A stretch of 39,373 nt of DNA, taken from the IMG/VR virus record IMGVR_UViG_2534681996_000012. One strand, 5' to 3'. Positions within the stretch are counted from its first letter, which is position 1. Each line of letters starts with the position of its first letter. Source of the DNA: a virus. Taxonomy: Duplodnaviria > Heunggongvirae > Uroviricota > Caudoviricetes. This document shows, piece by piece, positions 1,289 through 28,635 of the stretch. The position numbers were made by a program, and so were the translations under genes. The notes under the pieces were generated by a model that was not told the origin of the DNA, searched no databases, and saw only the letters and a list, made by a program, of their open reading frames with translations.

Positions 1289-1771
1289 CTATCTTGTCAG
1301 GGTGTCATACTGTTTTTCGCAGACTCTTCCGGCTTCGGCTGCCCGGTCAGCATACTCTGCCAGTTGTCTGTTTCTCTCGAGAGATTTGCTGAGCACGTCG
1401 GCAAGCAAAACTCCGGTGTCTGCGGCTGACGTCCCAGCGCCGACAATGGCGTTATACTGCCTGAGCTGCTCACGGATGGCAAAGAGTTGTTGCTGCAACC
1501 TGCCAGCGCGAGCGGCAGCATCAAGAGCATCATTGCGCGCCTGGTCGATTCTCTGCTGCGCTTCACGTTCATTGGTCACTTTCTCCTGTTCGTAGTACTG
1601 ACGAACTTTGTCTTCTTCGTCTTTGCGGTCTTCTTCCGCCTGCGCATACCCGGCATCGTACTGGCGACTGCCGTGTATATTCCAGGCAACCACTCCGACG
1701 ATGAACAGAGCAGCAAGCATCACCACGATAATCAGTTGTTTCCAATATGCTTTTACGAATGCCCAGATCAT
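1289..1771 (-). CDS. Rz-like i-spanin
   Basis: N-terminal TM segment ([18 protein letters not shown]) then charged coiled-coil; ATG overlaps endolysin stop (ATGA); last gene of lysis cassette. Confidence 0.7.
1297..1572 (-). CDS. Rz1-like o-spanin lipoprotein embedded in Rz in another frame
   Basis: ATG at 1572 with AGGAG 9 nt upstream; signal peptide [26 protein letters not shown] with lipobox; Pro-rich mature part; lies wholly inside the Rz ORF. Confidence 0.6.
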   Translation of the reverse strand: MNVKRSRESTRRAMMLLMLPLALAGCSNNSLPSVSSSGSITPLSALGRQPQTPEFCLPTCSANLSRETDNWQSMLTGQPKPEESAKNSMTP

Positions 1772-2397
1772 ATAGCCAGCACCTTACTGGCAGTGACGTA
1801 CCGCGAGCGCCGGTCGTCGATGCCGTTCCGGCCACCATTGATAATCAGAGTTACACGTGCAATATCACCGGTATACTTCATGCATCCTTTGCTGGCAAAG
1901 AACCACGCCGCGCTACGAGCCGCGTATTCGTCCTGCGCCAGCAGTTCAGGATTCTCCAGCAGGTCAACTTTCATACCGTTTCCGCAGTCACGATAGTTAT
2001 TCAAACCGGTAATCTGGATAAGCCCGCGCCCACGGTAATTCCAGCCATCGCCGGGAGCATTGTTACCCATGCGTTTGCTGTAAACCAGATTTGCGATCGC
2101 GCGCTGGCGCTCAAGTGGCAATGGTGGTTCACCAGCACGGCGCCCCAGTGCATTAGCCTGTCCCTGGGTGAGGCGTCCAGTCCTGACAAAGCTCGCCAGT
2201 CCGCTGACGCTGTAGTTGAAATTTTCCTGCAACCGGGTGAAGCCTCCAGACTCATGCCCGACCTGAGCAATAAACATTGCCTGATCTTCTGGTTTGCTGA
2301 TATCAAACTCTTTCATCGCAGAAGTTATATGCGAGAACCAGCGTGCGGCCAGCGCCTCGCTAATACCAGCAGCTCGTTGGAATTGTTTAATCTCCAT
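1768..2397 (-). CDS. Endolysin, glycoside hydrolase family 19 (chitinase-like lysozyme)
   Basis: Motifs [12 protein letters not shown] and [12 protein letters not shown] characteristic of GH19 phage endolysins; RBS GAGGT; between holin-like genes and Rz. Confidence 0.8.
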
Positions 2398-2695
2398 GTT
2401 TAGACCTCGTTATTTTGAAAATCTGAACAACGTTACCGCGAGTTTTAATAACCGCAGCTAGCATGACAGCGTTGATAATGACCTCAGATAAATCCACAGC
2501 CATTGGCGTACGTAACCAGATTGCATAGGCGACACGAACAGGAATACTGGCCGCAGCAACAATCAGGAAATAAGCAAGCCATCCTCCCCACCTTCGGTGT
2601 TGAGAGCCGTTACGCCGGAATGTGACAACGCGAATTGCTATGCCAGTGCAAATAACTGCATTGGTGATAAGCAAAAAAAACTCATGCGTTACCAT
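2387..2695 (-). CDS. Small membrane protein, holin/antiholin candidate
   Basis: Three hydrophobic segments and charged C-terminus; ATG 2695 with GGGGAG RBS; overlaps neighbours on both sides. Confidence 0.45.
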
Positions 2696-3086
2696 CGTCT
2701 TTTCTCCCCGGAATTAACTCGCGTGGATTATCGGAACGGTGATAAAGCCATATACCAATTCGCACAGCGACAATTGACGACACAAATGCGCCAGCAGAGA
2801 AGACGATCCCTTTCTCGAAAGAGTCCTGCGTGATGGTAGGGATCAGGCTGGCTACACCGATAAGGATGGATGCTGTAGGTTTGTAAAAGAGAAGGCCACA
2901 GAGAAAGCTAAGCATCGACAAGAGTACGCGACGACGAATGGGATACTCTACTGCAGAGGTAACAAAAATAACCGCTCCAGCCAAAGACCCCAAAGCAACC
3001 TCAGGAGGTGCTCCTGCTATAACCGCCACCAGAGAACTCATGCTAAGCCACTGATTTAAAGACTCACTGGTTATCTGAACTGACAT
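2682..3086 (-). CDS. Holin candidate
   Basis: ATG at 3086 preceded by GGTGG (track start 3095 is GTG); hydrophobic helices, charged C-terminal tail; first gene of lysis cassette. Confidence 0.55.
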   Translation of the reverse strand: MSVQITSESLNQWLSMSSLVAVIAGAPPEVALGSLAGAVIFVTSAVEYPIRRRVLLSMLSFLCGLLFYKPTASILIGVASLIPTITQDSFEKGIVFSAGAFVSSIVAVRIGIWLYHRSDNPRELIPGRKDDGNA

Positions 3087-3322
3087 AAAAACCACCGTTT
3101 AATGTGCATATGCCCCCCTAATTTAAGGGGTTCATCATACACAATAAACCACATGTGGTTAAACAGGTAATTCATTGTGATACTAATGTTAAACTCATTA
3201 CTGCCGAAAAAGTGTCACTGATTAAAACACGGTAGAGAAATTATTAACGAGTAATTTAGGCATAATTACAATATTTAAGTTATTAATTCACTGATTTAAT
3301 CAGTAAAAGATAGCTATAACAT

Positions 3323-3368: not shown

Positions 3369-5384
3369 TTACGCACTTCGTAATAAATGTTTAGACATAG
3401 CAGCAATACAGAAACAAGATAAGTCAGCGTAATTTACACCATACATATCCGATTCTTTATCATAAGTAACCAGAGAATAGTCTGTAGGGTTAAGATTATA
3501 TTTCTCCATAATCAGCATTACTTCTTGAGCCATACATCCGAAGTGATACTTATCAGATTCTGCATCTGTCCATTTAAACTTTATCATGCTAATGGCTAAT
3601 TCTAGCCCTGCACTATACTCTGCCGTAGATATCTCATACACATCTTTACATCTACCGTCAGATGTTTGTATTACACCATTAGTTGCAAAGACAGTTTGCC
3701 ATCTACGACTAGATTGACCACAAGTTCTTTGATTATCTATCTGGGGGGCAACACTACCATCTATACGCAAATAGTTATCTTCCGCTTGTGCGCCTCCCAT
3801 AACACCTTCTAAAAAAGGCAATCCTTTGTGATTATTTACAATGAATTTATTGGAGGTATCTTCTGATATTCCGGTGCCAGCATCTGGACCTATAAAAATA
3901 TTACCATTTCCAGTTGGTAATTTTCTTCCTGCTCTTGCTCCTATCATAACATTCAGGTCACCTGAGGATAGGGAATTGAGAGCATCAACACCAATTGCTG
4001 TATTAAAATTACCTGTGAGAGTCCCAGTGTATGGGTTCTTAGTTGATGATACTCCTCGCAATGCTCCATTACCTATAGCTGTGTTATGATCACCTTGCTT
4101 TAACTCCCTACCAGCTGCATTACCAATAAGGGTATTTCCATTACATTTATCATACCCAAGACGTACACCTTGAGGGTCTGTGTAGATGCCAGTACGCATT
4201 CCTGCAGAGCGTCCTATTGCAACATTAGCTTCTCCAGAATGGAGTTGCTGCAAAGCTGACATACCAACTGCAACATTGAACCTACCATCCTTACACTCGT
4301 TTAGCGCATCCCTGCCAATACCAATCATGTTATTTCCAGTGGTGGCTTTCTTCAAAGCATTAATACCTATACTGATAATCTCTGTTCCAGAAAATGGCGA
4401 CTTATCTGTAAGATCATCTTCTAGAGTATCTCCTGACAAACCACCCACACCAACCACGATTGTGTTAGTGCCGCTAGTTATGTTGCGACCAGAACTTGGT
4501 CCAAGCAAAACCAATTGATTACCTTTACCAGAGTCAGTGTAATTTTTTGCGGCATCATAACCTAAAATAAGGTTGCTATGAGACTGAGCTACATTGGTAA
4601 ACGGAATTCGTTCCGCTCCTGTCTCTTTAATTATTTTTCCTGGGCCATAAAATCTTCCATTAATATCTTCCGGCAATAAATACGTGCCATCAGGAACATA
4701 AACACCTTGTGGCGAAGCAGATGCCGCGGCAATGAAAGCATCTGTATCATTTGTGACTCCATCACCTTTAGCGCCAAAGTCAAGAACACTGACAGTATCC
4801 CGCATCTTATCCTGAAACGTTCTATATACCGCGCCTGAACCATACTGAATAAACCAACCAAAACCACCAACAACCCCGGCGATTGCAGCATCGACATAAT
4901 TACGCATTGAGCGATTATTTACAGCGTCCTGCTCAAGTGATGGATCTGCAAGGTTAGAAATTCTGTTTTGCTTTGCATCGTAATATTTTGCAAGCAAAGA
5001 TGGTTTCATCAATGCACGTCTGAACCACCCAAAACATTGCTGGATCAGCATCGTCAGGTAGTCAAAGGCATCTTCATGCACTTCGGGGAAAAACTTTCCC
5101 TGATTGCGAAGGTCTGTCTCCTGCACTACATCAAGCACACGATCTATCGTAATTCGCCATCCAGCAGCAAGCGGCGACGGAAGAACAACAGAACCGCCAC
5201 TATAAGTGCCCGCCCCAGTTACCGTATAACCGGTATCCAGAACCAATTCTGTTACGTTCCCGTTCAGGTCAGACACCTGAACAACCAGGTCGGATTTTTT
5301 GAAAATACGGAAGGTATACGGAAATGATGTCGTAACGCCGTTACCTGTGTATTCGTTGTGGTCAACTTCGGTTGAGACCGTCAT
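3369..5384 (-). CDS. Tail spike/fibre: T7 gp17-like N-terminal adaptor, beta-helix depolymerase-like centre, C-terminal intramolecular chaperone (peptidase S74-like)
   Basis: N-terminus MTVSTEVDHNEYTGNGVTTSFPYTFRIF...LVVQV resembles T7 tail-fibre N-terminal domain; VLDFGAKGDGVTNDTDAF beta-helix signature; C-terminal region resembles autoproteolytic chaperone domains; RBS GGAG. Confidence 0.8.
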   Translation of the reverse strand: MTVSTEVDHNEYTGNGVTTSFPYTFRIFKKSDLVVQVSDLNGNVTELVLDTGYTVTGAGTYSGGSVVLPSPLAAGWRITIDRVLDVVQETDLRNQGKFFPEVHEDAFDYLTMLIQQCFGWFRRALMKPSLLAKYYDAKQNRISNLADPSLEQDAVNNRSMRNYVDAAIAGVVGGFGWFIQYGSGAVYRTFQDKMRDTVSVLDFGAKGDGVTNDTDAFIAAASASPQGVYVPDGTYLLPEDINGRFYGPGKIIKETGAERIPFTNVAQSHSNLILGYDAAKNYTDSGKGNQLVLLGPSSGRNITSGTNTIVVGVGGLSGDTLEDDLTDKSPFSGTEIISIGINALKKATTGNNMIGIGRDALNECKDGRFNVAVGMSALQQLHSGEANVAIGRSAGMRTGIYTDPQGVRLGYDKCNGNTLIGNAAGRELKQGDHNTAIGNGALRGVSSTKNPYTGTLTGNFNTAIGVDALNSLSSGDLNVMIGARAGRKLPTGNGNIFIGPDAGTGISEDTSNKFIVNNHKGLPFLEGVMGGAQAEDNYLRIDGSVAPQIDNQRTCGQSSRRWQTVFATNGVIQTSDGRCKDVYEISTAEYSAGLELAISMIKFKWTDAESDKYHFGCMAQEVMLIMEKYNLNPTDYSLVTYDKESDMYGVNYADLSCFCIAAMSKHLLRSA

Positions 5385-5998: not shown

Positions 5999-6151
5999 AT
6001 GTGTAAAGCGCACCTATTCTATGGTGGGCTGTGTGGGGGCACCGAAAGGTGCGCCGGGTCCTTTGTAGCCGGTTACGCCAACCCTGCACAGTTCACCACC
6101 AACCGATTGGCGTCGGTAGTGGTGATTAACCTAACTACAAAGGTGATCACT

Positions 6152-6838
6152 ATGACTGCTAACGTAACCCCATCTGTTTTTCATTTTGAATCAGAAGCAA
6201 CCATTCGAGCCATTGTTATTGATGGAAATCCTTGGTTTGTTGCCAAAGACGTTATTAAAGCTCTTCAACTGACAAACCCCACTATGTCAATAAAATCTCT
6301 TGATGATGATGAAAGGGCTAAATTTAACTTAGGCCGTCAAGGCGAAACCAATATTATCAACGAGTCAGGCCTCTACACACTGATCCTCCGCTGCCGCGAT
6401 GCAGTAACACCAGGCACTATCCCCTACCGCTTTCGCAAATGGGTTACAGGTGAGGTACTTCCTCAGATCCGCCGCACCGGAAGTTACATTAAAAACTCGC
6501 TCCCGCAGGAAGAACGCATAAAGATGGTTGCCGACCAGGTAGCCAACGCCACGGCGTCAGCAGTGATGCAGGCAATGAAGATAGAGAACAAAACCTACAG
6601 CGCCCCGCTGAAGCCCGGCTACCGCAGCCTGATTCATTCTCCGTCTGGTGTTCTCGGCCTGACGGAGAACTCACTGCTGATGAATCTGCTGAACCAGTTA
6701 CAGGACGACGGGCACGACGTATCGGGCGCGGCGGCGGAGCTGACCACCATGTTCTGTTACATCGTTGGTGTGAGCAAATGCCTGCGTGATATCCAGACCC
6801 ACGCGGAGTACATCAACGACAAGGCAGGGTTCTTCTGA
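6152..6838 (+). CDS. Bro-N domain antirepressor-like protein
   Basis: N-terminal IRAIVIDGNPWFVAKDV...ESGLYTLILRC...FRKWVTGEVLPQIRRTGSY is a Bro-N signature; ATG 6152 with AAGGTGA 5 nt upstream; track extension to 5999 spans a terminator and is rejected. Confidence 0.75.
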   Translation: MTANVTPSVFHFESEATIRAIVIDGNPWFVAKDVIKALQLTNPTMSIKSLDDDERAKFNLGRQGETNIINESGLYTLILRCRDAVTPGTIPYRFRKWVTGEVLPQIRRTGSYIKNSLPQEERIKMVADQVANATASAVMQAMKIENKTYSAPLKPGYRSLIHSPSGVLGLTENSLLMNLLNQLQDDGHDVSGAAAELTTMFCYIVGVSKCLRDIQTHAEYINDKAGFF

Positions 6839-6961: not shown

Positions 6962-7288
6962 ATGACAAAACTTGGATTCGTGATGAGAGGTCCGGTAAGA
7001 AGCGGAACTCATGCAAAGCGTAGCAAGAGTCGTATTTTTACTGGTAAGGTTGTAGCACGTAAATCAGCTATTGGCTCGTTCAATAGTGAAAATGCGGCAT
7101 TGCGCCATATTTTTATCAGCACAAAGCCAAGAGCATCCGCTGATGTGCATACAATGACTATTCCTATCACAAAGAATATAAAGCGGATAAAAAAGCTCTC
7201 ATCTGCAGAATCAAAAGAGATATCTTTCCGCCAGCTTAACTCATTAGAAACGCATATGAAGGAAGAGGAATTCGATGTTTTTGAGTGA
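6962..7288 (+). CDS. Basic small protein with acidic C-terminal tail; antitoxin candidate
   Basis: GGAG RBS; K/R-rich N-terminal half; C-terminus ...LETHMKEEEFDVFE; stop lies 12 nt after the downstream gene's ATG. Confidence 0.4.
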   Translation: MTKLGFVMRGPVRSGTHAKRSKSRIFTGKVVARKSAIGSFNSENAALRHIFISTKPRASADVHTMTIPITKNIKRIKKLSSAESKEISFRQLNSLETHMKEEEFDVFE

Positions 7289-7787
7289 GTATAGCGGGAA
7301 GGTTATACCTACTGGTGAGTTTAAAACTGATGACTTTCTGATTTCGCTAAAAGATGCTTTTAAACAACACTGGCGTCATGGTCATCATCCTGATCTGGGA
7401 AAAGATACTCTTTTTGAAAGACCAGACGAAGTATTAGGTTTCCATCTCAGAAAGGTTCATGTCAATATTGGTGAATATGCATCATATTCATACTCATGTA
7501 CTGAACAGTGTTGGGATGAGTGGTCATATGGATTGATTGATGAACAAGGAAATTACAGGCCAAAACCAACCAGTAACGCATATCTCATATATGCAGTCAA
7601 TGAAATAAGAGATGCAGCCTTACTAGCTTATTGGGACCCGCCCGCACACACCAAAGCTAACGCAAAAGTTTGGATGGATTCCGTATTGAATTTCACAAAA
7701 TTATTTCATGAACGAACGAATACAGCTCCACTTAGTAGAAATGTTTATCCGTGGGATTATTCGTACAAATCCAAAAAGCCTGCATAG
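7275..7787 (+). CDS. YafO-like toxin candidate (ribosome-dependent mRNA interferase family)
   Basis: Blocks DDFLISLKD, PDLGKDTLFERPD, FHLRKVHVNIG, AYLIYAV and ALLAYWDPPAH resemble the YafO signature as I recall it; GAGGAA RBS; AT-rich. Confidence 0.45.
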   Translation: MFLSEYSGKVIPTGEFKTDDFLISLKDAFKQHWRHGHHPDLGKDTLFERPDEVLGFHLRKVHVNIGEYASYSYSCTEQCWDEWSYGLIDEQGNYRPKPTSNAYLIYAVNEIRDAALLAYWDPPAHTKANAKVWMDSVLNFTKLFHERTNTAPLSRNVYPWDYSYKSKKPA

Positions 7788-7868
7788 TAGTTTTTTATGG
7801 ACGAAACAAAAGTCAGTGCTACACTCATTGACGCCACATTGAGGTGGATTATAGATGGAAATTTCACA

Positions 7869-8030
7869 ATGAAAAAAGCATTTGCTGCACTGTTCGTTTT
7901 GTTGTCTCTGGTAGCTTCAACTCAGGCCTTTGCCGGTCGTTGTCAGCACGACAGCGATACTGCCGCTGACGGCTCCCGCTGCGGTGGGCGTTCTGCGGAT
8001 TCCCGCCCGGGTGGCGGTGGCATTCGTTAA
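7869..8030 (+). CDS. Small secreted peptide (about 53 aa)
   Basis: Classic signal peptide MKKAFAALFVLLSLVASTQAFA then Cys/Gly/Asp-rich mature peptide; weak RBS; track start 7797 places the signal peptide internally so ATG 7869 is preferred. Confidence 0.4.
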   Translation: MKKAFAALFVLLSLVASTQAFAGRCQHDSDTAADGSRCGGRSADSRPGGGGIR

Positions 8031-8036
8031 AAACAA

Positions 8037-8052
8037 GGCCGCGAAAGCGGCC
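8037..8052. terminator. Bidirectional terminator hairpin between convergent accessory genes
   Basis: GGCCGC-GAAA-GCGGCC; TTGTTTTT follows on the minus strand and a T-rich tract 15 nt away on the plus strand. Confidence 0.6.
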
Positions 8053-8053
8053 T

Positions 8054-8065
8054 GTGACATGTCAC
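8054..8065. repeat. 12-bp perfect palindrome GTGACATGTCAC (copy 1), embedding the stop codon of the 8062-8358 gene
   Basis: Identical palindrome recurs at 28286-28297 in the same relationship to a stop codon and a terminator. Confidence 0.7.
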
Positions 8066-8358
8066 GTTCCTTTTCTGAATGATAGCCGTTCGAAAAATGA
8101 TGACATTCCACCGCAGACAATAGCAAAGATGATCCCACCAAAGAAGAGAAGGCCAGCCTGCCACCACTCCCACCGCCATACATCCACAGCGCCAACCATA
8201 CCAACAATCGCTCCAACAAATGGAATATAGCTCACGATGAAAGCAATGGGGGCTGCAATTATCCAGTGCAATCCCCACCATGATTCAAGCCCAGCCATAA
8301 TTGCTGCCAACTGAAAAAGACCAACGACGATATAAACAATGAATCCTATAGCTTGCAT
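8062..8358 (-). CDS. Small integral membrane protein, function unknown
   Basis: ATG 8358 with AGGTGA 5 nt upstream; three hydrophobic helices; lies between the last internal virion gene and the plus-strand accessory island. Confidence 0.5.
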   Translation of the reverse strand: MQAIGFIVYIVVGLFQLAAIMAGLESWWGLHWIIAAPIAFIVSYIPFVGAIVGMVGAVDVWRWEWWQAGLLFFGGIIFAIVCGGMSSFFERLSFRKGT

Positions 8359-8554
8359 GTAGTCACCTAATTTACCCAGTAAAAATAAGAGGCCTCCCCT
8401 CAATAAGGCTTGCAACAAGAACTACTCCCTGCACAACAAAGATGAACCAGCAAATAGCTTGAGTCTGAGGGTTAAGAAAATATTTGTAGCGGTCAATAAA
8501 TAACAATCCACCAGAAATTATCACACTCAAAATAATTAAAAACACAACACTTCC

Positions 8555-11029
8555 TTATTGCGGAGTGACATCCTGTGGTCGCCACCAGTATGTCTGGTTA
8601 AACTCTTTCTTCGAACGTTGCTCCATTTTACGCAAATAACCTGGTGAAAAATACTCCTGCATCTGGTTAAAGATCATGTGATCGAGAGCCGCCTTCAAGT
8701 ACCAGAGATTCGCACCAGGCATCAAACCTTTCCCCAGCTTCACCAGATCACCACCAGTCTGCTCACTCTTCCCTTCCACAGCATTTAACGGTATGCCCTG
8801 AGCAATCTTCACTACATCATCAACCAGACCAGCTACCGGGCCAAGCATCGACGCCAGCGCGCCGCTCCCGTACCTAGTGTGGTCAGAGAAAAGAAAATCA
8901 CCGTACAACCCAGCCCCGCCACCTTTTAAAAATGCATTTATCCAGAATTTAACCATGTGGTCACCGGTCATTTCCTTTGGATTTCTCCCATTAATAAGAT
9001 CAGTAATCTGCATGGAAAGAGCACCAAGCATGGTTGTGCTTGCTAAAAACGTTGCTATATATGCTGCACGCCCACCAGCAGACGGCATACCCATAGCGCG
9101 TGACCAGTGACGCATAACAACCGAGATAGGGAACGATTTAAACAGGAAAACACTTCTCGTTAATTCACCTTTCCATGTTCCACGCTGAAGACCAGACCCT
9201 ACGAACATCTGCTCACGTGCGCCCGGTGTAATAACAGCCATATCAACTTCTTCAGTTACGGCACCGAGCAGTTTACGCATTGCCTCAAATTTCACGCGTT
9301 CAGGCTCACCAAGATGTTTAACTGCTGAATCAGGGATACGCATAATGCTTTCCGGTGTCAGCATCGTATTATTACCGTTCCCCCAGTCCTCCTGTTGCGC
9401 CAACTTCCATACGCTCCAGTCTGTGTCAGTAATCCCTTTGCTTTTCAGGATACGAAAATCAGAGTCATCGAGGCGACGAAGGTCTGGTGTCCGTGACACT
9501 ACTTCTCCCAGGCTTCCCATCATGGTTACGCCATAGGCGCGCTTGTGCGCATCTGACCATGCTGTAAGCCCACTGGCACGCATTACCGCCGTTGCAGCCC
9601 AACGAGACACAGACGGCCCCATATTATCCATCGCCCAGCGGTTAACGCTGCCAAGTAGAGATTCCATCGCCAGGCCAGCGCGGCGCGCCCGCGCAAGCTC
9701 AGTACGGTTCGTTGGGTCCATAGCTTCAAGCTGGTTGCGAAATAACTGGTTCATTGGAAGGTTGGTAACCTTCGCAGACAGATACATGGTTCCAAGATCA
9801 GAGAACGATGACAGCAACGCGGATCCGAGTCTGCTGGCAACCAGCCAGTTGCGGATATTGTCAGACCATCGCGCGATGTGGGGATTCGCTACAGGCTGTG
9901 TTTTTCCGGAAATAAAGTTGTACAAGTTCTCTGTTTTGTTCGCCAGACGCTCGACGCTACCGGTTTTACTCGGGTTAGCTGTTGCCGTTTCTGCCTTAAC
10001 CTGATCAAGAAGGGAGCGGAAAACATGATCGGGGTTTGGACCATATGTTTCCACCAGAGCAATATCTTTACTGATACCTTCCAGGTGACCGACCATGATT
10101 TCCCATAGAGAGCGATCGCCATAAAGTTGCTGATATTGCAGATAGGAATCTGCATCTTTGAAATGTATCTGTCGTGATGCATTACCACGGTTAGCACGTG
10201 CGCCGGAAATTCGCATTCCGGTATCAGTAAGCTTATTCAGCCCACCAGTAGCGATCGTGTTATAAGCCTCTCCAAGAAATGCAGACAACTCGGCATCGTT
10301 CATCAGTTGTCCATCGGCTCGGGTATAATATTTGCGATCCAGCTTACCTATAACATCGCTAACCCATTTATCTTTTGATACCGCCCCAACCTTTTCCATA
10401 GAATGATGTTGAGGGATCCCCCAGTTTTCGAGATAGCCAATGTCCCCACCAGCATCATTAAACCGGCGGCGGAGTAGATCTGTCACTTCTCTCCACGCCT
10501 TAGCACCTTTTCTTGCTTTAGCATTGCCAGTATTTTGCCCTCGCATTTCATATACCAGGTCACGCACGCCCGCTTCATCTTCAAACAGGCCAAAAAAGCG
10601 AGGATCAACTGCTTCGAATGCCTCCTGCAATTGACTCAATGCATAATCACGGGTGGCTTTTGTTCTGGATTCAACAGAGAGGAAATTAGATTTACCGTCT
10701 GCATTAAAAGCAATAGTACGGTTAAGAGCGCCAAGTTTCCCATCAGCCCCTTGATAGCTATTGATAAATTTATCCAATCTCTGACGTGCGGCTATAGTGA
10801 GGGCCACACGACGTTTCTTTAATGCCGCTTCTCGCTGTAATTCTTCAGATGCCAATTGTGCTGCACGATATAGCCGCTCTGATTCGGAAAGTTGTCTCCA
10901 CGACATCGGGTCATCACGAGCAATGGAGCGCATATTTCGATAAATGCGGTCTTCAATGTTCTGTATTTCTCGCGCCGTTAACGTGCGCTGCGCCGCCTGC
11001 TGGACCGCTTGTATACATTCCTGTCTCAT
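8555..11029 (-). CDS. Internal virion (ejection) protein, C-terminal part of a gp16-like module
   Basis: 824 aa; position after the other internal virion proteins and before the tail spike. Confidence 0.55.
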   Translation of the reverse strand: MRQECIQAVQQAAQRTLTAREIQNIEDRIYRNMRSIARDDPMSWRQLSESERLYRAAQLASEELQREAALKKRRVALTIAARQRLDKFINSYQGADGKLGALNRTIAFNADGKSNFLSVESRTKATRDYALSQLQEAFEAVDPRFFGLFEDEAGVRDLVYEMRGQNTGNAKARKGAKAWREVTDLLRRRFNDAGGDIGYLENWGIPQHHSMEKVGAVSKDKWVSDVIGKLDRKYYTRADGQLMNDAELSAFLGEAYNTIATGGLNKLTDTGMRISGARANRGNASRQIHFKDADSYLQYQQLYGDRSLWEIMVGHLEGISKDIALVETYGPNPDHVFRSLLDQVKAETATANPSKTGSVERLANKTENLYNFISGKTQPVANPHIARWSDNIRNWLVASRLGSALLSSFSDLGTMYLSAKVTNLPMNQLFRNQLEAMDPTNRTELARARRAGLAMESLLGSVNRWAMDNMGPSVSRWAATAVMRASGLTAWSDAHKRAYGVTMMGSLGEVVSRTPDLRRLDDSDFRILKSKGITDTDWSVWKLAQQEDWGNGNNTMLTPESIMRIPDSAVKHLGEPERVKFEAMRKLLGAVTEEVDMAVITPGAREQMFVGSGLQRGTWKGELTRSVFLFKSFPISVVMRHWSRAMGMPSAGGRAAYIATFLASTTMLGALSMQITDLINGRNPKEMTGDHMVKFWINAFLKGGGAGLYGDFLFSDHTRYGSGALASMLGPVAGLVDDVVKIAQGIPLNAVEGKSEQTGGDLVKLGKGLMPGANLWYLKAALDHMIFNQMQEYFSPGYLRKMEQRSKKEFNQTYWWRPQDVTPQ

Positions 11030-19435: not shown

Positions 19436-19755
19436 TCACCTCCGTTACCGTACAGAGTTTCAGCCGCTGATTTTTCTACATCCCCGGAAACAGGAGCGAT
19501 CGCCATATCAGTGATCTGCAGATCGGCGCTGCGATTAACGCCATCGTCAGTTTCTCTGGCAGACAGGCCTCGAATAACAGCCTTTGCAGTTATCATCACT
19601 TCTGTTCCGACGCCCTTAGGTTGCGCCTTCAGCTTATTCAATGTGTCGTTATTCAGCGTGATGCACAGCCCCCACGGGTATTCATCGCGAGTTCTGGTTT
19701 CTCCGCTCTCATCCTGGTAGCTGTCAGTGCCGGTTTTGAGGTTTACGAGTTCCAT
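19432..19755 (-). CDS. Hypothetical virion-module protein
   Basis: ATG 19755 with AGGAG 6 nt upstream (track start 19761 is GTG). Confidence 0.5.
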   Translation of the reverse strand: MELVNLKTGTDSYQDESGETRTRDEYPWGLCITLNNDTLNKLKAQPKGVGTEVMITAKAVIRGLSARETDDGVNRSADLQITDMAIAPVSGDVEKSAAETLYGNGGE

Positions 19756-22339: not shown

Positions 22340-22636
22340 TCACTCCTGTTCACTGGCCTCTTTGGCCATCTTCAAATACTGTTCAGGGCAATGCGCCATA
22401 ACGCGCTGAAACAGTTCCAGCGCCAGATTGCGTTGCCCCTCATTAAATGCCATTGCCATAGCATCCATCGGAGAGATAGCGGAAAACACCCGGCCTTTCT
22501 CCAGCACAGACCAGACAACGCGACGCCCATGTTCACTGCTCATGACAAAGCGAATGTCATCAATTTCACGCTGTGCCATGTCACGTTGCTTACGGGCGTT
22601 TTCTTCTTTCAGTTGATCGTCTTCGTAATCTGTCAT
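22340..22636 (-). CDS. Hypothetical 98-aa protein between portal and scaffold
   Basis: Overlaps portal stop and scaffold RBS. Confidence 0.5.
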   Translation of the reverse strand: MTDYEDDQLKEENARKQRDMAQREIDDIRFVMSSEHGRRVVWSVLEKGRVFSAISPMDAMAMAFNEGQRNLALELFQRVMAHCPEQYLKMAKEASEQE

Positions 22637-24312
22637 TGTGATTGCCCACCCTGACCACTAACTACATTCGCCATAGCTGACAAAACACTCGGATCCGAAG
22701 TTTTAGCTTCGCTTAGCGTTTTGGCACCCTGTGCCGCCGCCATCCCCATCGCCATCATTTGTTGCTGCTGTTGCTGCTGTGCCCGTTGCTGGCGAGCCTG
22801 CTCAACCTGTTCCTGCGGAACAATGACGGTTGGAGACACTCCGGACATATCAGCGAATGCATCGATCGCCTGATCAACGTTGAGTTTGTCGAGAGCTTCT
22901 GGTTTCGCTTGCGCAAGTTGACCAATGAAGTTAACCGTGGACGCCAGACTGGACAGGCCGATAGACTTCTGCGCCTGAGCCATGACGGAAATGTATTCGA
23001 CCTTCAGGGGCATACCTTCCATCGCGTCAGGCGGTGGCGGCAGCATGTTTTTACGCACCATCATCGAGAAAGCGCGGTCAATGAGAGGGTTAAGACATTC
23101 GTCGTTCAGACGCTCCAGAACCGGCCCCAACATCAGAAGCTTTTCTTCTTTCATTTCGATCACTGCTTCAACAGGCATCGAGCGGGTATTGATGTTCTGC
23201 AACATCATGAACAGATCGACAAAGTAGGCGCTGTTAATGATTTGGCGGGTGTCCTGAATGTCTGCTACCAGATCTGCTGTACTGGGGTTAACCAGATAAG
23301 CAGGCCTGAAACCATCCTGACCAGTAATCTGATCGATATACGTGATGTCGCCAGGAAGAAGAGAGGCGCGCTGATTCTTGAGGGAAGTCGGAGCAACCAT
23401 CGGCGGATTGGTGGCTTTATCAATCAACTGCGACTTGCGCTTCTGGAGAAGCTGCAATGCCTTAACAGGTCCAAGCGCCAGCATACCCGGGCATGATGAT
23501 CCATAAACATCTTCGCCGTTAACTTCCCAGCGCGGAGCCATAATTGGAAACTCATCGAATCCGGACTCACGCAACAACTTGTCGTTATCGCCGCCAACCT
23601 CGTAATAAACCGATTTGAATGGCTTGTTCTTGCTATCCAGCTTCGATGTATCGCGGTCAATGTTCGGGTAAACCGAATGCATAACTTCAATCCACTTCTC
23701 GTAGGTGCCGCTTTCCCACATGCTTTTTACGGATTCGCTGACGTTATTTAGCCCGAACTCCTGAACAAGCTGACGAACAGTCATAGAGAACTTGCGAAAA
23801 CAGGTGTCCACACTGCCACGAGGTGAGTTAGCCAGGTAGTAACTGCCTATCGGGAATGGCATTGTGCGAATGATGTCCTCGTCATCCTCCAGCACCGCCA
23901 TTGCACCAGTGCTGTATGTACCGAGGCTTCCGTATAACTGCGGCAGCGACTGGTAGAGATTCGACTTATTGAACATATCGTTCATACGGTTCTGCACCGC
24001 CTCAAGCCACAACTTAACAGGTCCATAATCCATCATTTCAGGATCTGGCGTAGCCAGGCGAAACCACGGACGCGCTGGGCTTGTGATGCCTGACATCATG
24101 CCGCTGGCGAGAGTGCGCGCCGCCATAGTCCCGGTCGAATCAATAATGCGTGTATTGCGTCGATCGTTACGGTTGACCTCAGAAGTCAGAAAGCGGGAAC
24201 CACGCGGGTTGATGTAATCACTCAACTCGCGCCAGTGCGGCTCGAACGACTGACGCTCGCTTTCAAGTTGTGCGAACTGTTTGTTCAATCGCTCTTTAGT
24301 TGTTTCCGCCAT
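22633..24312 (-). CDS. Portal (head-to-tail connector) protein
   Basis: 559 aa; GGAG RBS; Gln/Ala/Met-rich C-terminal tail as in T7 gp8; located between terminase and scaffold. Confidence 0.8.
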   Translation of the reverse strand: MAETTKERLNKQFAQLESERQSFEPHWRELSDYINPRGSRFLTSEVNRNDRRNTRIIDSTGTMAARTLASGMMSGITSPARPWFRLATPDPEMMDYGPVKLWLEAVQNRMNDMFNKSNLYQSLPQLYGSLGTYSTGAMAVLEDDEDIIRTMPFPIGSYYLANSPRGSVDTCFRKFSMTVRQLVQEFGLNNVSESVKSMWESGTYEKWIEVMHSVYPNIDRDTSKLDSKNKPFKSVYYEVGGDNDKLLRESGFDEFPIMAPRWEVNGEDVYGSSCPGMLALGPVKALQLLQKRKSQLIDKATNPPMVAPTSLKNQRASLLPGDITYIDQITGQDGFRPAYLVNPSTADLVADIQDTRQIINSAYFVDLFMMLQNINTRSMPVEAVIEMKEEKLLMLGPVLERLNDECLNPLIDRAFSMMVRKNMLPPPPDAMEGMPLKVEYISVMAQAQKSIGLSSLASTVNFIGQLAQAKPEALDKLNVDQAIDAFADMSGVSPTVIVPQEQVEQARQQRAQQQQQQQMMAMGMAAAQGAKTLSEAKTSDPSVLSAMANVVSGQGGQSQ

Positions 24313-25230: not shown

Positions 25231-25259
25231 ATGACCACAAATTACCTTAAAGGTATAAT
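25231..25259 (+). promoter_or_regulatory. Sigma70-like promoter (ATGACC-17-TATAAT) overlapped by operator-like TTACC-TTAAA-GGTAT
   Basis: Perfect -10 TATAAT at 25254-25259; operator variant at 25242-25256. Confidence 0.55.
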
Positions 25260-25284
25260 CATGAAAAACTTTAAGGTAATTAGT

Positions 25285-26109
25285 ATGTTCGAATCGTTCA
25301 AAGAGCTGTTTTTATCTACTGCCAATACTGCCGTGCATCGAGCTAAAAACCCTGTGCTTGGTGCTTTTGTTATGTCCTGGTGCGCCTTCAACTGGAAATC
25401 ACTTCTTTATCTATTTTTTAGCAAATCAAATATAATAGATAAAATTTCATACATCTCAGATAACAGCACATGGAAAACTGTTATGTTTTATCCATGCTTA
25501 TCTGTAATTACTATCTGCTGCCTATTACCATGGGTAAACAATATCATTAACGTATGGCAAGCAAAGCCTCTTGATAATAATGACTCAATCGAAAATCACC
25601 GGAAGGCAAGAAAAATACAACGTGAAACACGGCTACAGAGATTGCTGGCTAAAAAAGACATTACTTACGAAAAAGTAAAAACAGGCGCTGAAAAAAACAT
25701 TCAAGACATGAAAGAGGAAATAATTCTTTCAAAAGACAGAATGGGACAACTCACATCTGAATTGAAAGAGAGGGAGACAGAACTGCGCGCAGAACAAGCT
25801 CGTATTTTAGAATTATCTAAGGTTATTGATGAAACAACATCTAAACTAGAAAATCTAGAAAAAGCTCACAAAAATTTAAAAAACGAATATGAGTCCTATA
25901 AGAAAAACATTCCTTTGGCAACAAATAATACAATTGCTAATGGGCTTGTAGGTCTAAAATCATTACAAGACCTTAATGAGTCCGTAAAGAAACTTGGCGT
26001 TACTGGAATTAACAATCCAGAAATCAATACATTATTGAATAATCCTCTAGTAAATATAAATGGTGGTTTAAATTCCACCTATCAAAGAAAATTAAAAACA
26101 CAAAAGTAA
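25285..26109 (+). CDS. AT-rich accessory protein: two N-terminal TM helices plus long C-terminal coiled coil
   Basis: ATG 25285 with AAGGT 7 nt upstream (track start 25231 lies upstream of the predicted promoter); hydrophobic segments VLGAFVMSWCAFNWKSLLYLFF and VMFYPCLSVITICCLLPW; K/E-rich heptad-like C-half; stop 3 nt from the convergent terL stop. Confidence 0.55.
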   Translation: MFESFKELFLSTANTAVHRAKNPVLGAFVMSWCAFNWKSLLYLFFSKSNIIDKISYISDNSTWKTVMFYPCLSVITICCLLPWVNNIINVWQAKPLDNNDSIENHRKARKIQRETRLQRLLAKKDITYEKVKTGAEKNIQDMKEEIILSKDRMGQLTSELKERETELRAEQARILELSKVIDETTSKLENLEKAHKNLKNEYESYKKNIPLATNNTIANGLVGLKSLQDLNESVKKLGVTGINNPEINTLLNNPLVNINGGLNSTYQRKLKTQK

Positions 26110-26112
26110 AAA

Positions 26113-27582
26113 TCATTCAAATGGGTCATAGTCTGTTATAGCCCTGCCCTGCTGCTGCCGTGGGTCATTAGTTTTCTTGGCTACCGGGAAAGCAAACGTC
26201 AGCAGTAGCGCATCGCCTTTACCCGGCGAACGCCCAAGCCGCTCTTTGATATCTTCCTTCGGTTCGATAACGATTTTACCGTCCACACGAACTTTGTACT
26301 CTGCCGCCGACAGGTCATCCGCTGTTTCCTGGTCATCCAGCATCCCGCCGAGCCTCAGCCATGTCTTGCATGAGTTGAACATCTCCCCGCGCTTGTTAAG
26401 CATCTGCGGGTCAGTAGACGCGCCACCGAACGGAACAAGTTGCCATGTACGGCCCCAGCCATCACCGATTGACTTCAGACCGGTTCCGTAACCGAAGTCG
26501 ATGAACACCGCGTCAGCCTGATACTGGTCTTCAAAGTCAGCGATACGCTTCGCCATAATCAGATCGTCGGTGGTCTTGTTACCAGTCCATAGCACCTTAC
26601 TGTGCAGCCCCTGCCGCAGGTATATCACAGCGTCATCAACGCCGGAGTATGCCGGGTCAACGCCGATTATCACCGGAGCATGTGCCACCTGCGCAGCGGT
26701 GACCACCCGTTTCATTGCCTCGTCAGTAAGTCCGGTAGGGATAAACTGCAATTCAGATGCATCCGGGAATATGCCGCGCACACGGATTTTAACGAAGTCG
26801 CTGTCTTCCCCGTAGTCATCAACCCATTTCTGCAACTGCTGTTTGTTGGTGCCTTCCACCGTCCGGCTGTCAATCTGCGCAGTTTTCCAGCGGTGTTTAT
26901 ATTTGCGGAAACATTCGCGGAAACGCCCGGTGTTACGTGTAGGGTTTCCGAACGCCACCCAGATAATCTCAGTGTCTTCGTCCGTTAGCGCCCCCTCAGC
27001 AACTTCCCACACCAGATCCGCAATGTTCGACGCTTCATCGAATACCACGATGATGCGTTTGCGCTCGTTGTGTAGTCCGGCGAATGCCTCAGTGTTGTGC
27101 TCAGACCAGGGGATTGCGTCAGCTCGCCACCGCTTGTCGTGCCCAGGATCATTGCTGTACATCGCGGTAGCGGTACAGGTAAACCAGTCTTTCGTGATAG
27201 CAAGGTTCGACCACTTGATAATTTCCGGCCAGGTCTTCGTTCGTAGCTGGTTGTCGGTGTTGGCGGTCACCACGACCTTACAATCCTCGCAAGTGGACAT
27301 GCCCCAGTTGATCAGCATTGAGATGAATGCGGATTTACCAATACCGTGACCAGAAGCGCGTGCCAGCATAAGCGGCTGATAGCGCGTCTCTGGATTCTGC
27401 AGGTGATCACGTATCTCTCGGAACGCATCAGCCTGCCACTGACGTGGGCCGGTAGCATGTGCCAGTTCAGTCCCCTCTTCCCCCCACGGGAACGCATAGA
27501 GGGCATAGCCAAGCGGATCGTGAGTGAACCCTGCAATATCCTCGATCAACTGCTCTTCAGGAGATAACGCTGTATCTGTCAC
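26113..27582 (-). CDS. Terminase large subunit
   Basis: 489 aa; P-loop-like SGHGIGKS; C-terminal nuclease-like region VIIGVDPAYSGVDD; overlaps small-subunit gene by 4 nt. Confidence 0.9.
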   Translation of the reverse strand: MTDTALSPEEQLIEDIAGFTHDPLGYALYAFPWGEEGTELAHATGPRQWQADAFREIRDHLQNPETRYQPLMLARASGHGIGKSAFISMLINWGMSTCEDCKVVVTANTDNQLRTKTWPEIIKWSNLAITKDWFTCTATAMYSNDPGHDKRWRADAIPWSEHNTEAFAGLHNERKRIIVVFDEASNIADLVWEVAEGALTDEDTEIIWVAFGNPTRNTGRFRECFRKYKHRWKTAQIDSRTVEGTNKQQLQKWVDDYGEDSDFVKIRVRGIFPDASELQFIPTGLTDEAMKRVVTAAQVAHAPVIIGVDPAYSGVDDAVIYLRQGLHSKVLWTGNKTTDDLIMAKRIADFEDQYQADAVFIDFGYGTGLKSIGDGWGRTWQLVPFGGASTDPQMLNKRGEMFNSCKTWLRLGGMLDDQETADDLSAAEYKVRVDGKIVIEPKEDIKERLGRSPGKGDALLLTFAFPVAKKTNDPRQQQGRAITDYDPFE

Positions 27583-28285: not shown

Positions 28286-28297
28286 GTGACATGTCAC
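28286..28297. repeat. 12-bp perfect palindrome GTGACATGTCAC (copy 2), embedding the stop codon of the 28294-28635 gene
   Basis: Same palindrome as 8054-8065; TGA stop occupies the same positions within it. Confidence 0.7.
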
Positions 28298-28635
28298 ACT
28301 ATTAATTTCGTTTCATGCCAGCCTTTAGTCACCCAGCATTGCGAGTCACCATTACACGGGCATGAATTAACTGGAACTCTCTCGCCGCACTTACCGCAAC
28401 ATTTTCTGCTGATCGATTTTATACGCCCGCGCACGCGTGCATCATCCTGGCGGATCAGTAACGCTATATACTCACCAAATTCGTAAGGCGCACGCCCGGG
28501 GCGACGCGTGGCACAGTTACGCTCCAGCATTTCAATTTCCTGAGCATCAAGCACAATTTCCAGCTTACGCACACCAGATGCAGCTTGTCTGGCTCTCTGA
28601 GCGGCTTTGCGCTCTGCTGCTGATTTAGCCATCAA
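28294..28635 (-). CDS. Small basic protein with C-terminal Cys-rich zinc-finger-like motif; late regulator candidate
   Basis: CCGKCGERVPVNSCPCNGDSQCW; last early-region gene immediately upstream of the terminator and terS. Confidence 0.4.
   Translation of the reverse strand: MMAKSAAERKAAQRARQAASGVRKLEIVLDAQEIEMLERNCATRRPGRAPYEFGEYIALLIRQDDARVRGRIKSISRKCCGKCGERVPVNSCPCNGDSQCWVTKGWHETKLIV

Follow-up and report, generated by a model that had tools for sequence, protein, structure and literature searches.

A portable gene for a predicted exported peptide abuts the late-operon terminator of an epsilon15-like Escherichia coli prophage

A moron, in the sense used for HK97 and lambda, is a promoter, a gene and a terminator inserted between conserved genes; lambda bor and lom and HK97 gp15 are examples, and HK97 gp15 is an exclusion-like factor acting at the DNA-entry step. 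P22 SieA is a three-transmembrane (TM) inner-membrane protein that is encoded next to the ejection genes 7, 20 and 16 and blocks DNA injection (PMC10883804). Here we compare with these systems a locus at positions 7,788 to 8,554 of a 39,373-nucleotide (nt) stretch of viral DNA, IMG/VR record IMGVR_UViG_2534681996_000012 (the window). From its sequence, the window is a temperate podovirus prophage of E. coli, genus Uetakevirus (epsilon15/phiV10-like); it is ~99% identical to Escherichia phage phiv142-3 (99.1% over region 7791-8700) and shares its gene order with phiV10. At the locus, a gene for a 53-amino-acid (aa) pre-peptide with an export signal converges with a gene for a 98-aa membrane protein on one GC-rich hairpin. 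The reading that we favour, at somewhat better than even confidence, is that these are independent modules: envelope accessory genes of two unrelated units that abut at the late-operon terminator.

The peptide gene lies in a block, made up of leader, gene and hairpin, that can be regarded as a portable moron. By megablast, the match to TL-2011b is exactly 7791-8066 and that to EC.W1-9 is 7791-8055, with otherwise unrelated flanks, and the block is gone from the collinear phiV10; presence and absence among relatives thus have sharp boundaries. In phiV10, the last ~20 nt of the peptide gene are retained, joined to the hairpin, and look like a deletion remnant. The gene on the other side of the hairpin changes from phage to phage. 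In TL-2011b and EC.W1-9 the block converges on ant or an unrelated 283-aa gene, in Klebsiella ST512-KPC3phi13.3 the peptide gene converges on a 204-aa gene and in a Salmonella prophage on a lipoprotein gene; among Cronobacter prophages with the peptide gene, some have the 98-aa gene and others lack it. In Pectobacterium the peptide gene is isolated within a group of opposite-strand genes, flanked by a MuF_C-domain gene and a 435-aa gene. As side observations on phiV10, everything between the end of the Bro-N gene and about window position 8007 is missing there, and PhiV10p22 (phiV10 stretch 3911-4000), annotated as a 29-aa 'hypothetical protein', ends in the last codons of the peptide gene (GGGIR and stop) and looks like a deletion remnant, not a gene.

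Like the morons of HK97 and lambda, the block is discrete, has a candidate -10 element before the gene and a hairpin after it, comes and goes among close relatives, turns up in foreign contexts and runs counter to the late operon. It differs from them in that its promoter is a candidate only and its product has no relationship to any moron protein characterised so far: HK97 gp15 is a membrane protein and Bor a lipoprotein, whereas the peptide here is predicted to be soluble, exported and 31 residues long. We envisage a self-contained moron, on the strand opposite to the late operon, that landed against the late-operon terminator. The first-pass annotation had placed the locus at a tail-fibre-proximal moron site, a fair description of this cargo region, which has the tailspike gene on one side and the end of the virion/ejection-protein operon on the other.

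The 98-aa gene belongs to the other unit. In every context examined (including Yersinia, Salmonella, Kosakonia and Cronobacter prophages) it is directly downstream of, and co-directional with, the gene for the last large internal virion protein, with a gap of 1 nt in Kosakonia. Its slot is variable: elsewhere it holds a 128-aa lipoprotein gene (one Salmonella prophage) or is empty (K. oxytoca, phiV10), and the 98-aa gene is therefore dispensable cargo. The protein has three hydrophobic segments (residues 1-25, 28-61 and 66-90), as first annotated, and a basic C terminus with the charged tail ERLSFRKGT; its AlphaFold2 model is all-helical with a predicted local distance difference test (pLDDT) score of 89.8. 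It matches phrog_3075, a family with no known function, over residues 1-98 of 98 (expectation value (E) 5.4e-54), with relatives down to 45% identity. Because homologues are consistently ~98 aa long, ATG 8358 is the right start; TTG 8418, which gives 118 aa in the phiv142-3 record, is an over-extension. No structural neighbour of the 98-aa protein was found.

Between the 824-aa and 98-aa genes, the range considered by the first-pass annotation holds a third real gene that it missed. This gene encodes a 57-aa membrane protein of a family of 56-58 aa found in E. coli, Citrobacter, Klebsiella, Salmonella and Enterobacter, and always lies ~10 nt after the 824-aa gene, which is itself the last of three genes for large internal-virion (putative ejection) proteins. 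In the window, 13 nt separate the 57-aa and 98-aa genes and the operon terminator follows the latter. The two would thus be the last two cistrons of the late operon: the 57-aa gene would be coupled to the 824-aa gene, and the 98-aa gene would fill a variable cargo slot. Pfam and NCBIfam scans of both proteins gave nothing above threshold, and hhalign found no relationship between the two families. In BUCT711, TTG stands at the codon where the window has the GTG start of the 57-aa gene. Annotation of phiv142-3 and of most RefSeq E. coli records omits the gene, and at its position phiV10 has p21, an unrelated 46-aa two-TM protein (19% identity).

The surroundings recall P22, in which an antirepressor/immI-like region also lies between the last ejection-protein gene and the tailspike gene (PMC10883804), and the 98-aa protein resembles SieA in being small with three predicted TM segments. 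It shows no homology to SieA (hhalign probability 0.2%), has 98 aa against 162-164 aa, and lacks the SieA motif FxRYPxEAxxFNK (PMC10883804). The arrangement differs as well: P22 sieA has its own promoter and is convergent with gene 16, and the 98-aa gene runs in the same direction as the late operon. The convergent, sieA-like position is held by the peptide gene.

The peptide gene is a member of a conserved family, with homologues across Enterobacterales. Its product matches phrog_14503, which has no known function, over residues 1-53 of 53 (full-length match to the hidden Markov model (HMM), E 2.3e-40). The first-pass annotation described a secreted Cys/Gly-rich peptide, and an export signal can be read directly from the residues: a basic n-region (MKK), the hydrophobic core AFAALFVLLSLVAS and a cleavage site after TQAFA and before G, with small residues at -3 and -1, as in Sec substrates of signal peptidase I. 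The only hydrophobic stretch is residues 1-23, and a lipobox is excluded because R stands at -1 of Cys25. The mature part is hydrophilic and has 2 Cys and 8 Gly among its 31 residues; its calculated mass is 3,060 Da, less 2 Da if it is disulfide-bonded. Its NCBI name, 'transmembrane anchored protein', is evidently a misnomer, the signal peptide having been misread as an anchor. In the family alignment the signal peptide drifts, G23-G49 are nearly invariant and C25 and C38 are invariant. Comparisons with homologues over the 25-codon core of the mature part give nonsynonymous differences per site (pN) of 0-0.17 against 0.6-1.0 for synonymous ones (pS), and pN 0.000 against pS 0.895 for the Buttiauxella copy; the core is under very strong purifying selection. 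An in-frame N-terminal extension to 77 aa (ATG 7797; phrog_3117) was rejected, the extension being broken in BUCT711 and the family being 50-55 aa long.

The hairpin between the two stop codons folds on either strand. On the minus strand, a 7-bp stem is followed by the tail UGUUUUUAAC, with a U-tract at 8036-8027, and it is this strand only that the terminator scan calls. Read on the plus strand, the stem leads into GUGACAUGUCAC (the palindrome GTGACATGTCAC) with no U-run. Of the bidirectional terminator proposed in the first-pass annotation, the hairpin and the minus-strand half hold, and the plus-strand half does not; we take the structure to be primarily the intrinsic terminator of the minus-strand late operon. 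Of 20 homologous loci, 19 have a hairpin after the stop codon of the peptide gene, with compensatory changes in the stem, and it is therefore the sole candidate stop signal for the peptide transcript. In some of these loci, where the downstream context differs, a T-run follows it on the peptide strand.

Upstream of the peptide gene, the only positions invariant among 17 aligned homologous loci from ~10 genera are T7820, A7821 and T7825 (TAnnnT), which form part of a candidate promoter (Table 1). The promoter TTGACG-N17-ATAGAT proposed earlier fares worse: its letters are present, its -10 hexamer matches TATAAT at 2/6 positions, the scan did not call it and neither hexamer is conserved. With it falls the idea that there is almost no leader, as the invariant TAnnnT at 7820-7825 implies one of ~40 nt, which contains a Shine-Dalgarno (SD)-like GGA at 7857-7859. 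The promoter scan as a whole found 4 promoter-like sites in the region, against 4.3 expected, that is, at chance frequency. In TL-2011b and BUCT711 a terminator sits just upstream of the TAnnnT element, and the peptide gene therefore needs its own promoter there.

A small stem-loop follows TAnnnT, and separate folds of each sequence place a hairpin at this position in 17/17 loci. The stem sequences differ (GCCAC/GUGGU, GCCGC/GCGGC, GCCGUC/GAUGGC and UUGCC/GGCAA among them). RNAalifold run on the raw leader alignment gave no consensus pairs, so it is the per-sequence folds, and these only, that argue for the leader hairpin. The stem-loop may be a 5'-terminal element of the mRNA. In most of the 17 loci it is followed by CUACACA. 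An Rfam scan of 7600-8700 gave chance matches only.

Table 1 Features of the window that are referred to in the text
Feature	Position	Strand	Details
Lysis cassette	1289-3095	-	Phage_holin_8, Phage_holin_3_7, GH19 endolysin, DUF2514 (Rz-like)
Tailspike gene	3369-5384	-	
Plus-strand cargo cluster		+	90-aa open reading frame (ORF), Bro-N antirepressor, 108-aa ORF, 170-aa ORF, 53-aa ORF
Bro-N antirepressor	5999-6838	+	
170-aa ORF, weakly YafO-like	7275-7787	+	in cargo cluster
Peptide moron block	7791-8066	+	276 bp; leader, gene, hairpin
Candidate promoter favoured by comparison	7798-7825	+	TGGACG 7798-7803, 16-nt spacer, TG 7817-7818, TACACT 7820-7825
Promoter of the first-pass annotation, TTGACG-N17-ATAGAT	7828-7856	+	TTGACG 7828-7833, ATAGAT 7851-7856; overlaps leader hairpin
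Small leader stem-loop	7834-7847	+	CCAC-N6-GUGG; 6-8 nt past TAnnnT
53-aa pre-peptide	7869-8030	+	signal peptide 7869-7934; mature 31 aa GRCQHDSDTAADGSRCGGRSADSRPGGGGIR 7935-8027
GC-rich hairpin	8037-8053	.	AGGCCGC-GAAA-GCGGCCT; between both stop codons, common to the two converging units
Perfect 12-bp palindrome GTGACATGTCAC	8054-8065	.	includes TGA stop of 98-aa gene; abuts late-operon terminator
98-aa three-segment membrane protein	8062-8358	-	SD AGGTGA 8368-8363
57-aa two-helix membrane protein	8372-8545	-	GTG start; SD GGAAG 8554-8550 abuts stop codon of 824-aa gene
824-aa virion structural protein	8555-11029	-	phrog_684 'virion structural protein'; homologue phiV10p20
Distal part of long virion operon		-	last large genes code for 862-, 600- and 824-aa proteins

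The 25-residue core of the peptide, C-x5-D-x-A-x-DGSRCG-x-RSA-x-SRPGG, recurs far beyond phages as part of a wider unit, [AS]-G-x-C-x5-[DQN]-x-A-x-[DN]-G-S-R-C-G-x-R-[SA]-[AS]-x-x-R-P-G-G. A search of 1.84 billion proteins with the family profile returned, at E<=1e-3, at least 469 cluster representatives, which range from Proteobacteria to cyanobacteria. Of the matches listed, roughly one in four are short proteins composed of a signal peptide and the domain; in the rest, the domain comes right after a signal peptide or is C-terminal in a larger protein. The fusion partners are all extracytoplasmic: SH3_3 (bacterial SH3), PG_binding_1, DNase_NucA_NucB and the N-terminal domain of type II and type III secretion system (T2SS/T3SS) pilus proteins. 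Free-standing forms occur in Rhizobiales, cyanobacteria, Vibrio and Bacteriovorax, in heterogeneous neighbourhoods with no recurrent partner gene. The domain matches no known family: Pfam and NCBIfam have no match to the peptide, a Pfam scan of 32 domain instances gave nothing but one chance toxin match, and PDB sequences searched with a profile of the mature domain returned nothing at E<=10. We found no paper on the DGSRCG motif or on a phage 'transmembrane anchored protein'.

There is a likeness to Excalibur (PF05901), which has DxDxDGxxCE in a Cys-Cys loop. By eye, D30-x-A-x-D34-G-S-R-C38 aligns with DxDxDGxxC, also inside a Cys-Cys loop, and one distant member of the peptide family has an Excalibur-like stretch. 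The peptide differs in having Ala in place of the central Asp, and the Excalibur HMM matched neither the 32 domain sequences nor the whole peptide at E<=10. Many members have Q or N for D30, so calcium binding is no conserved property. A four-cysteine variant, GNCPCPYNxAxNGSRCGGRSAYSRPGGxSPLCY (P0158, P0162, P0201, P0205, P0208, P0241 and similar), usually comes after a bacterial SH3 domain and a short helix, which suggests an elaborated form of the same fold.

Could the peptide and the 98-aa protein nevertheless form one module, as a ligand and its receptor, a toxin and its immunity protein or a two-part exclusion system, as the first-pass annotation had it? Of 5,426 complete E. coli genomes, 449 (8%) carry the peptide gene and 215 the 98-aa gene; 143 have the two side by side, as in the window. 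Neighbours in 67% of 98-aa carriers, and paired again in Klebsiella BUCT711 and one Cronobacter prophage, they may seem to belong together. Against this, they lie on opposite strands in separate transcription units and each is found alone: 306 of the 449 peptide-carrying E. coli genomes have no adjacent 98-aa gene; the peptide meets ant, 283-aa, 204-aa or lipoprotein genes in other phages; it occurs without the 98-aa gene in TL-2011b, EC.W1-9, Klebsiella ST512-KPC3phi13.3 and Cronobacter, Pectobacterium and Salmonella prophages; Yersinia, Salmonella and Kosakonia prophages have the 98-aa family without the peptide; and in Rhizobiales and cyanobacteria, in which the peptide family is common, it has no conserved neighbour. 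The linkage is frequent because both genes are common residents of one cargo region, not through mutual need. The claim that both are small envelope proteins stands, and the joint module, which we consider very improbable, does not; this is a clear negative on the pair idea. Nor is the peptide readily seen as a phage communication signal of the arbitrium type or as a bacteriocin-type toxin, for all that it is small, predicted to be exported and prophage-carried, with candidate expression signals of its own. It shares with AimP a Sec signal on a prophage-encoded pre-peptide, and differs from it in having no AimR-like receptor adjoining, a Gram-negative host, a 25-residue core like that of a folded domain and a family that extends beyond phages. 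No receptor, processing or immunity gene is linked to it, the whole core is nearly invariant rather than merely a short C-terminal signal, and the same core is a domain of larger envelope proteins and is common outside phages. Signalling is disfavoured on these grounds (no adjacent receptor gene, constraint over the full core and its use as a domain in larger proteins), and a signal or a toxin of this kind seems extremely unlikely.

For the 98-aa protein, two other roles come into question. Made late, with its N terminus out and its basic C terminus in, it could be a holin or antiholin-like protein that times lysis. Small size, three hydrophobic segments, a charged C-terminal tail, a strong SD and a place in the late operon are what class I holins (lambda S type) and Phage_holin_5_2 (PF16079) would lead one to expect, and there is a weak match to the latter (E 0.027, 15.1 bits). 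This score is well under the gathering threshold of 29.2, a full lysis cassette is already present elsewhere in the window, and viable close relatives such as phiV10 lack the gene, all of which makes a holin improbable. Alternatively, the 57-aa and 98-aa proteins may take part in the phage's own DNA ejection, as accessory components or assembly factors of the apparatus, and not protect the host at all. Their strict synteny across genera behind the gene for the last large internal virion protein speaks for this, as do the tight spacings noted above (1 nt in Kosakonia; ~10 nt between the 824-aa and 57-aa genes). The 98-aa gene is naturally dispensable, being absent from phiV10, the K. oxytoca prophage and some Cronobacter prophages, and phiV10 carries an unrelated two-TM protein instead of the 57-aa one, which leaves a part in ejection fairly unlikely.

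Under the reading of independent modules, the peptide would be exported by Sec and cut after AFA to give a hydrophilic periplasmic mini-protein with two invariant Cys, presumably disulfide-bonded, whose core would be a free-standing copy of the widespread extracytoplasmic mini-domain. It would act alone, as a small binding module for an envelope component, and its most plausible use on a prophage would be lysogenic conversion or the exclusion of incoming phages. The 98-aa protein would be an inner-membrane accessory factor at the DNA-entry or ejectosome step, exclusion-like in the manner of P22 SieA or HK97 gp15. Prophage envelope or exclusion factors are thus our best guess for these small genes, and a specific exclusion function of either protein is doubtful. 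More specific still, and unlikely, is that the core is an undescribed extracytoplasmic mini-domain whose free-standing form was captured as a moron by temperate phages of Enterobacterales, and that the peptide is a periplasmic decoy or blocker that binds peptidoglycan, another envelope polymer, or the ejectosome or lytic transglycosylase of an incoming phage and so excludes superinfecting phages.

Several observations weigh against this picture. The candidate promoter is weak in the window (8/12 consensus matches, under the scan threshold), as is the leader hairpin (-4.9 kcal/mol, z -1.2, only 4 bp). The AlphaFold2 model of the mature peptide is of low confidence (pLDDT 44-62), too poor for a fold search. 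HMMs of PADLOC-DB gave no match at E<=1 to the peptide, the 98-aa or 57-aa proteins or the two upstream ORFs. In the functional study of phiv142-3, orf11 (the peptide) and orf12 (the 98-aa protein) were not deleted and are not among the serum-induced genes listed (PMC7724020). No promoter could be recognised for the 98-aa gene itself; were its transcription confined to the late phase, exclusion in lysogens would be harder to argue for it. Its conserved linkage to ejection genes is just as compatible with a part in the infection cycle of the phage itself.

The locus is ordinary prophage cargo, and what interest remains is modest and lies in the peptide's widespread, uncharacterised mini-domain. 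Should the peptide act in the lysogen periplasm, ~1 in 12 sequenced E. coli strains would harbour an exported phage factor as yet unstudied, and it would offer an entry point to a widespread mini-domain that has neither a Pfam entry nor a solved structure. A decoy or blocker role would make it a new type of soluble periplasmic exclusion factor; the 98-aa protein could be a second, non-SieA way to block or assist DNA entry through a podovirus ejectosome. Annotation gains the 98-aa rather than the 118-aa start, the 57-aa gene and the correction of the name 'transmembrane anchored protein'.

The 108-aa (phrog_5933) and 170-aa (phrog_1651) ORFs directly upstream of the peptide moron overlap and together span 6962-7787 on the plus strand. 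The 170-aa ORF has a weak, below-threshold match to YafO_toxin (E 9.5e-4), and its TL-2011b homologue is annotated as a YafO-family toxin. In another E. coli prophage, the peptide gene comes after a RelB/YafQ pair. With a YafO-like ORF here and RelB/YafQ there, toxin-antitoxin-like modules therefore tend to occupy the same cargo region as the peptide moron.

Finally, the palindrome GTGACATGTCAC beside the hairpin is invariant in phiV10, TL-2011b, BUCT711 and 10 other loci, regardless of the flanking gene. A second exact copy, at 28286-28297, marks the start of the late operon: it includes the TGA stop of a 113-aa phrog_536 'transcriptional regulator' gene at 28294-28635 and lies ~40 nt before a hairpin and T-run that precede the small-terminase gene. 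Two copies in the window compare with 0.05 expected by chance. The palindrome may bind a regulator at either end of the late operon or, alternatively, be a boundary sequence for recombination. A copy with one mismatch is found at 22573-22584, and phiV10 has copies at the equivalent junctions (2262-2273 and 19493-19504) and one-mismatch copies at 5306-5317 and across the record ends. Within the late operon of the window, a 292-aa ORF (25231-26109, plus strand) forms a further opposite-strand insert, between the large-terminase gene (26113-27582, minus strand) and the portal/head-tail adaptor gene (22633-24312, minus strand); at its terminase/portal junction, phiV10 carries other cargo (p03 and p04), flanked by GTGACATGTCAC.

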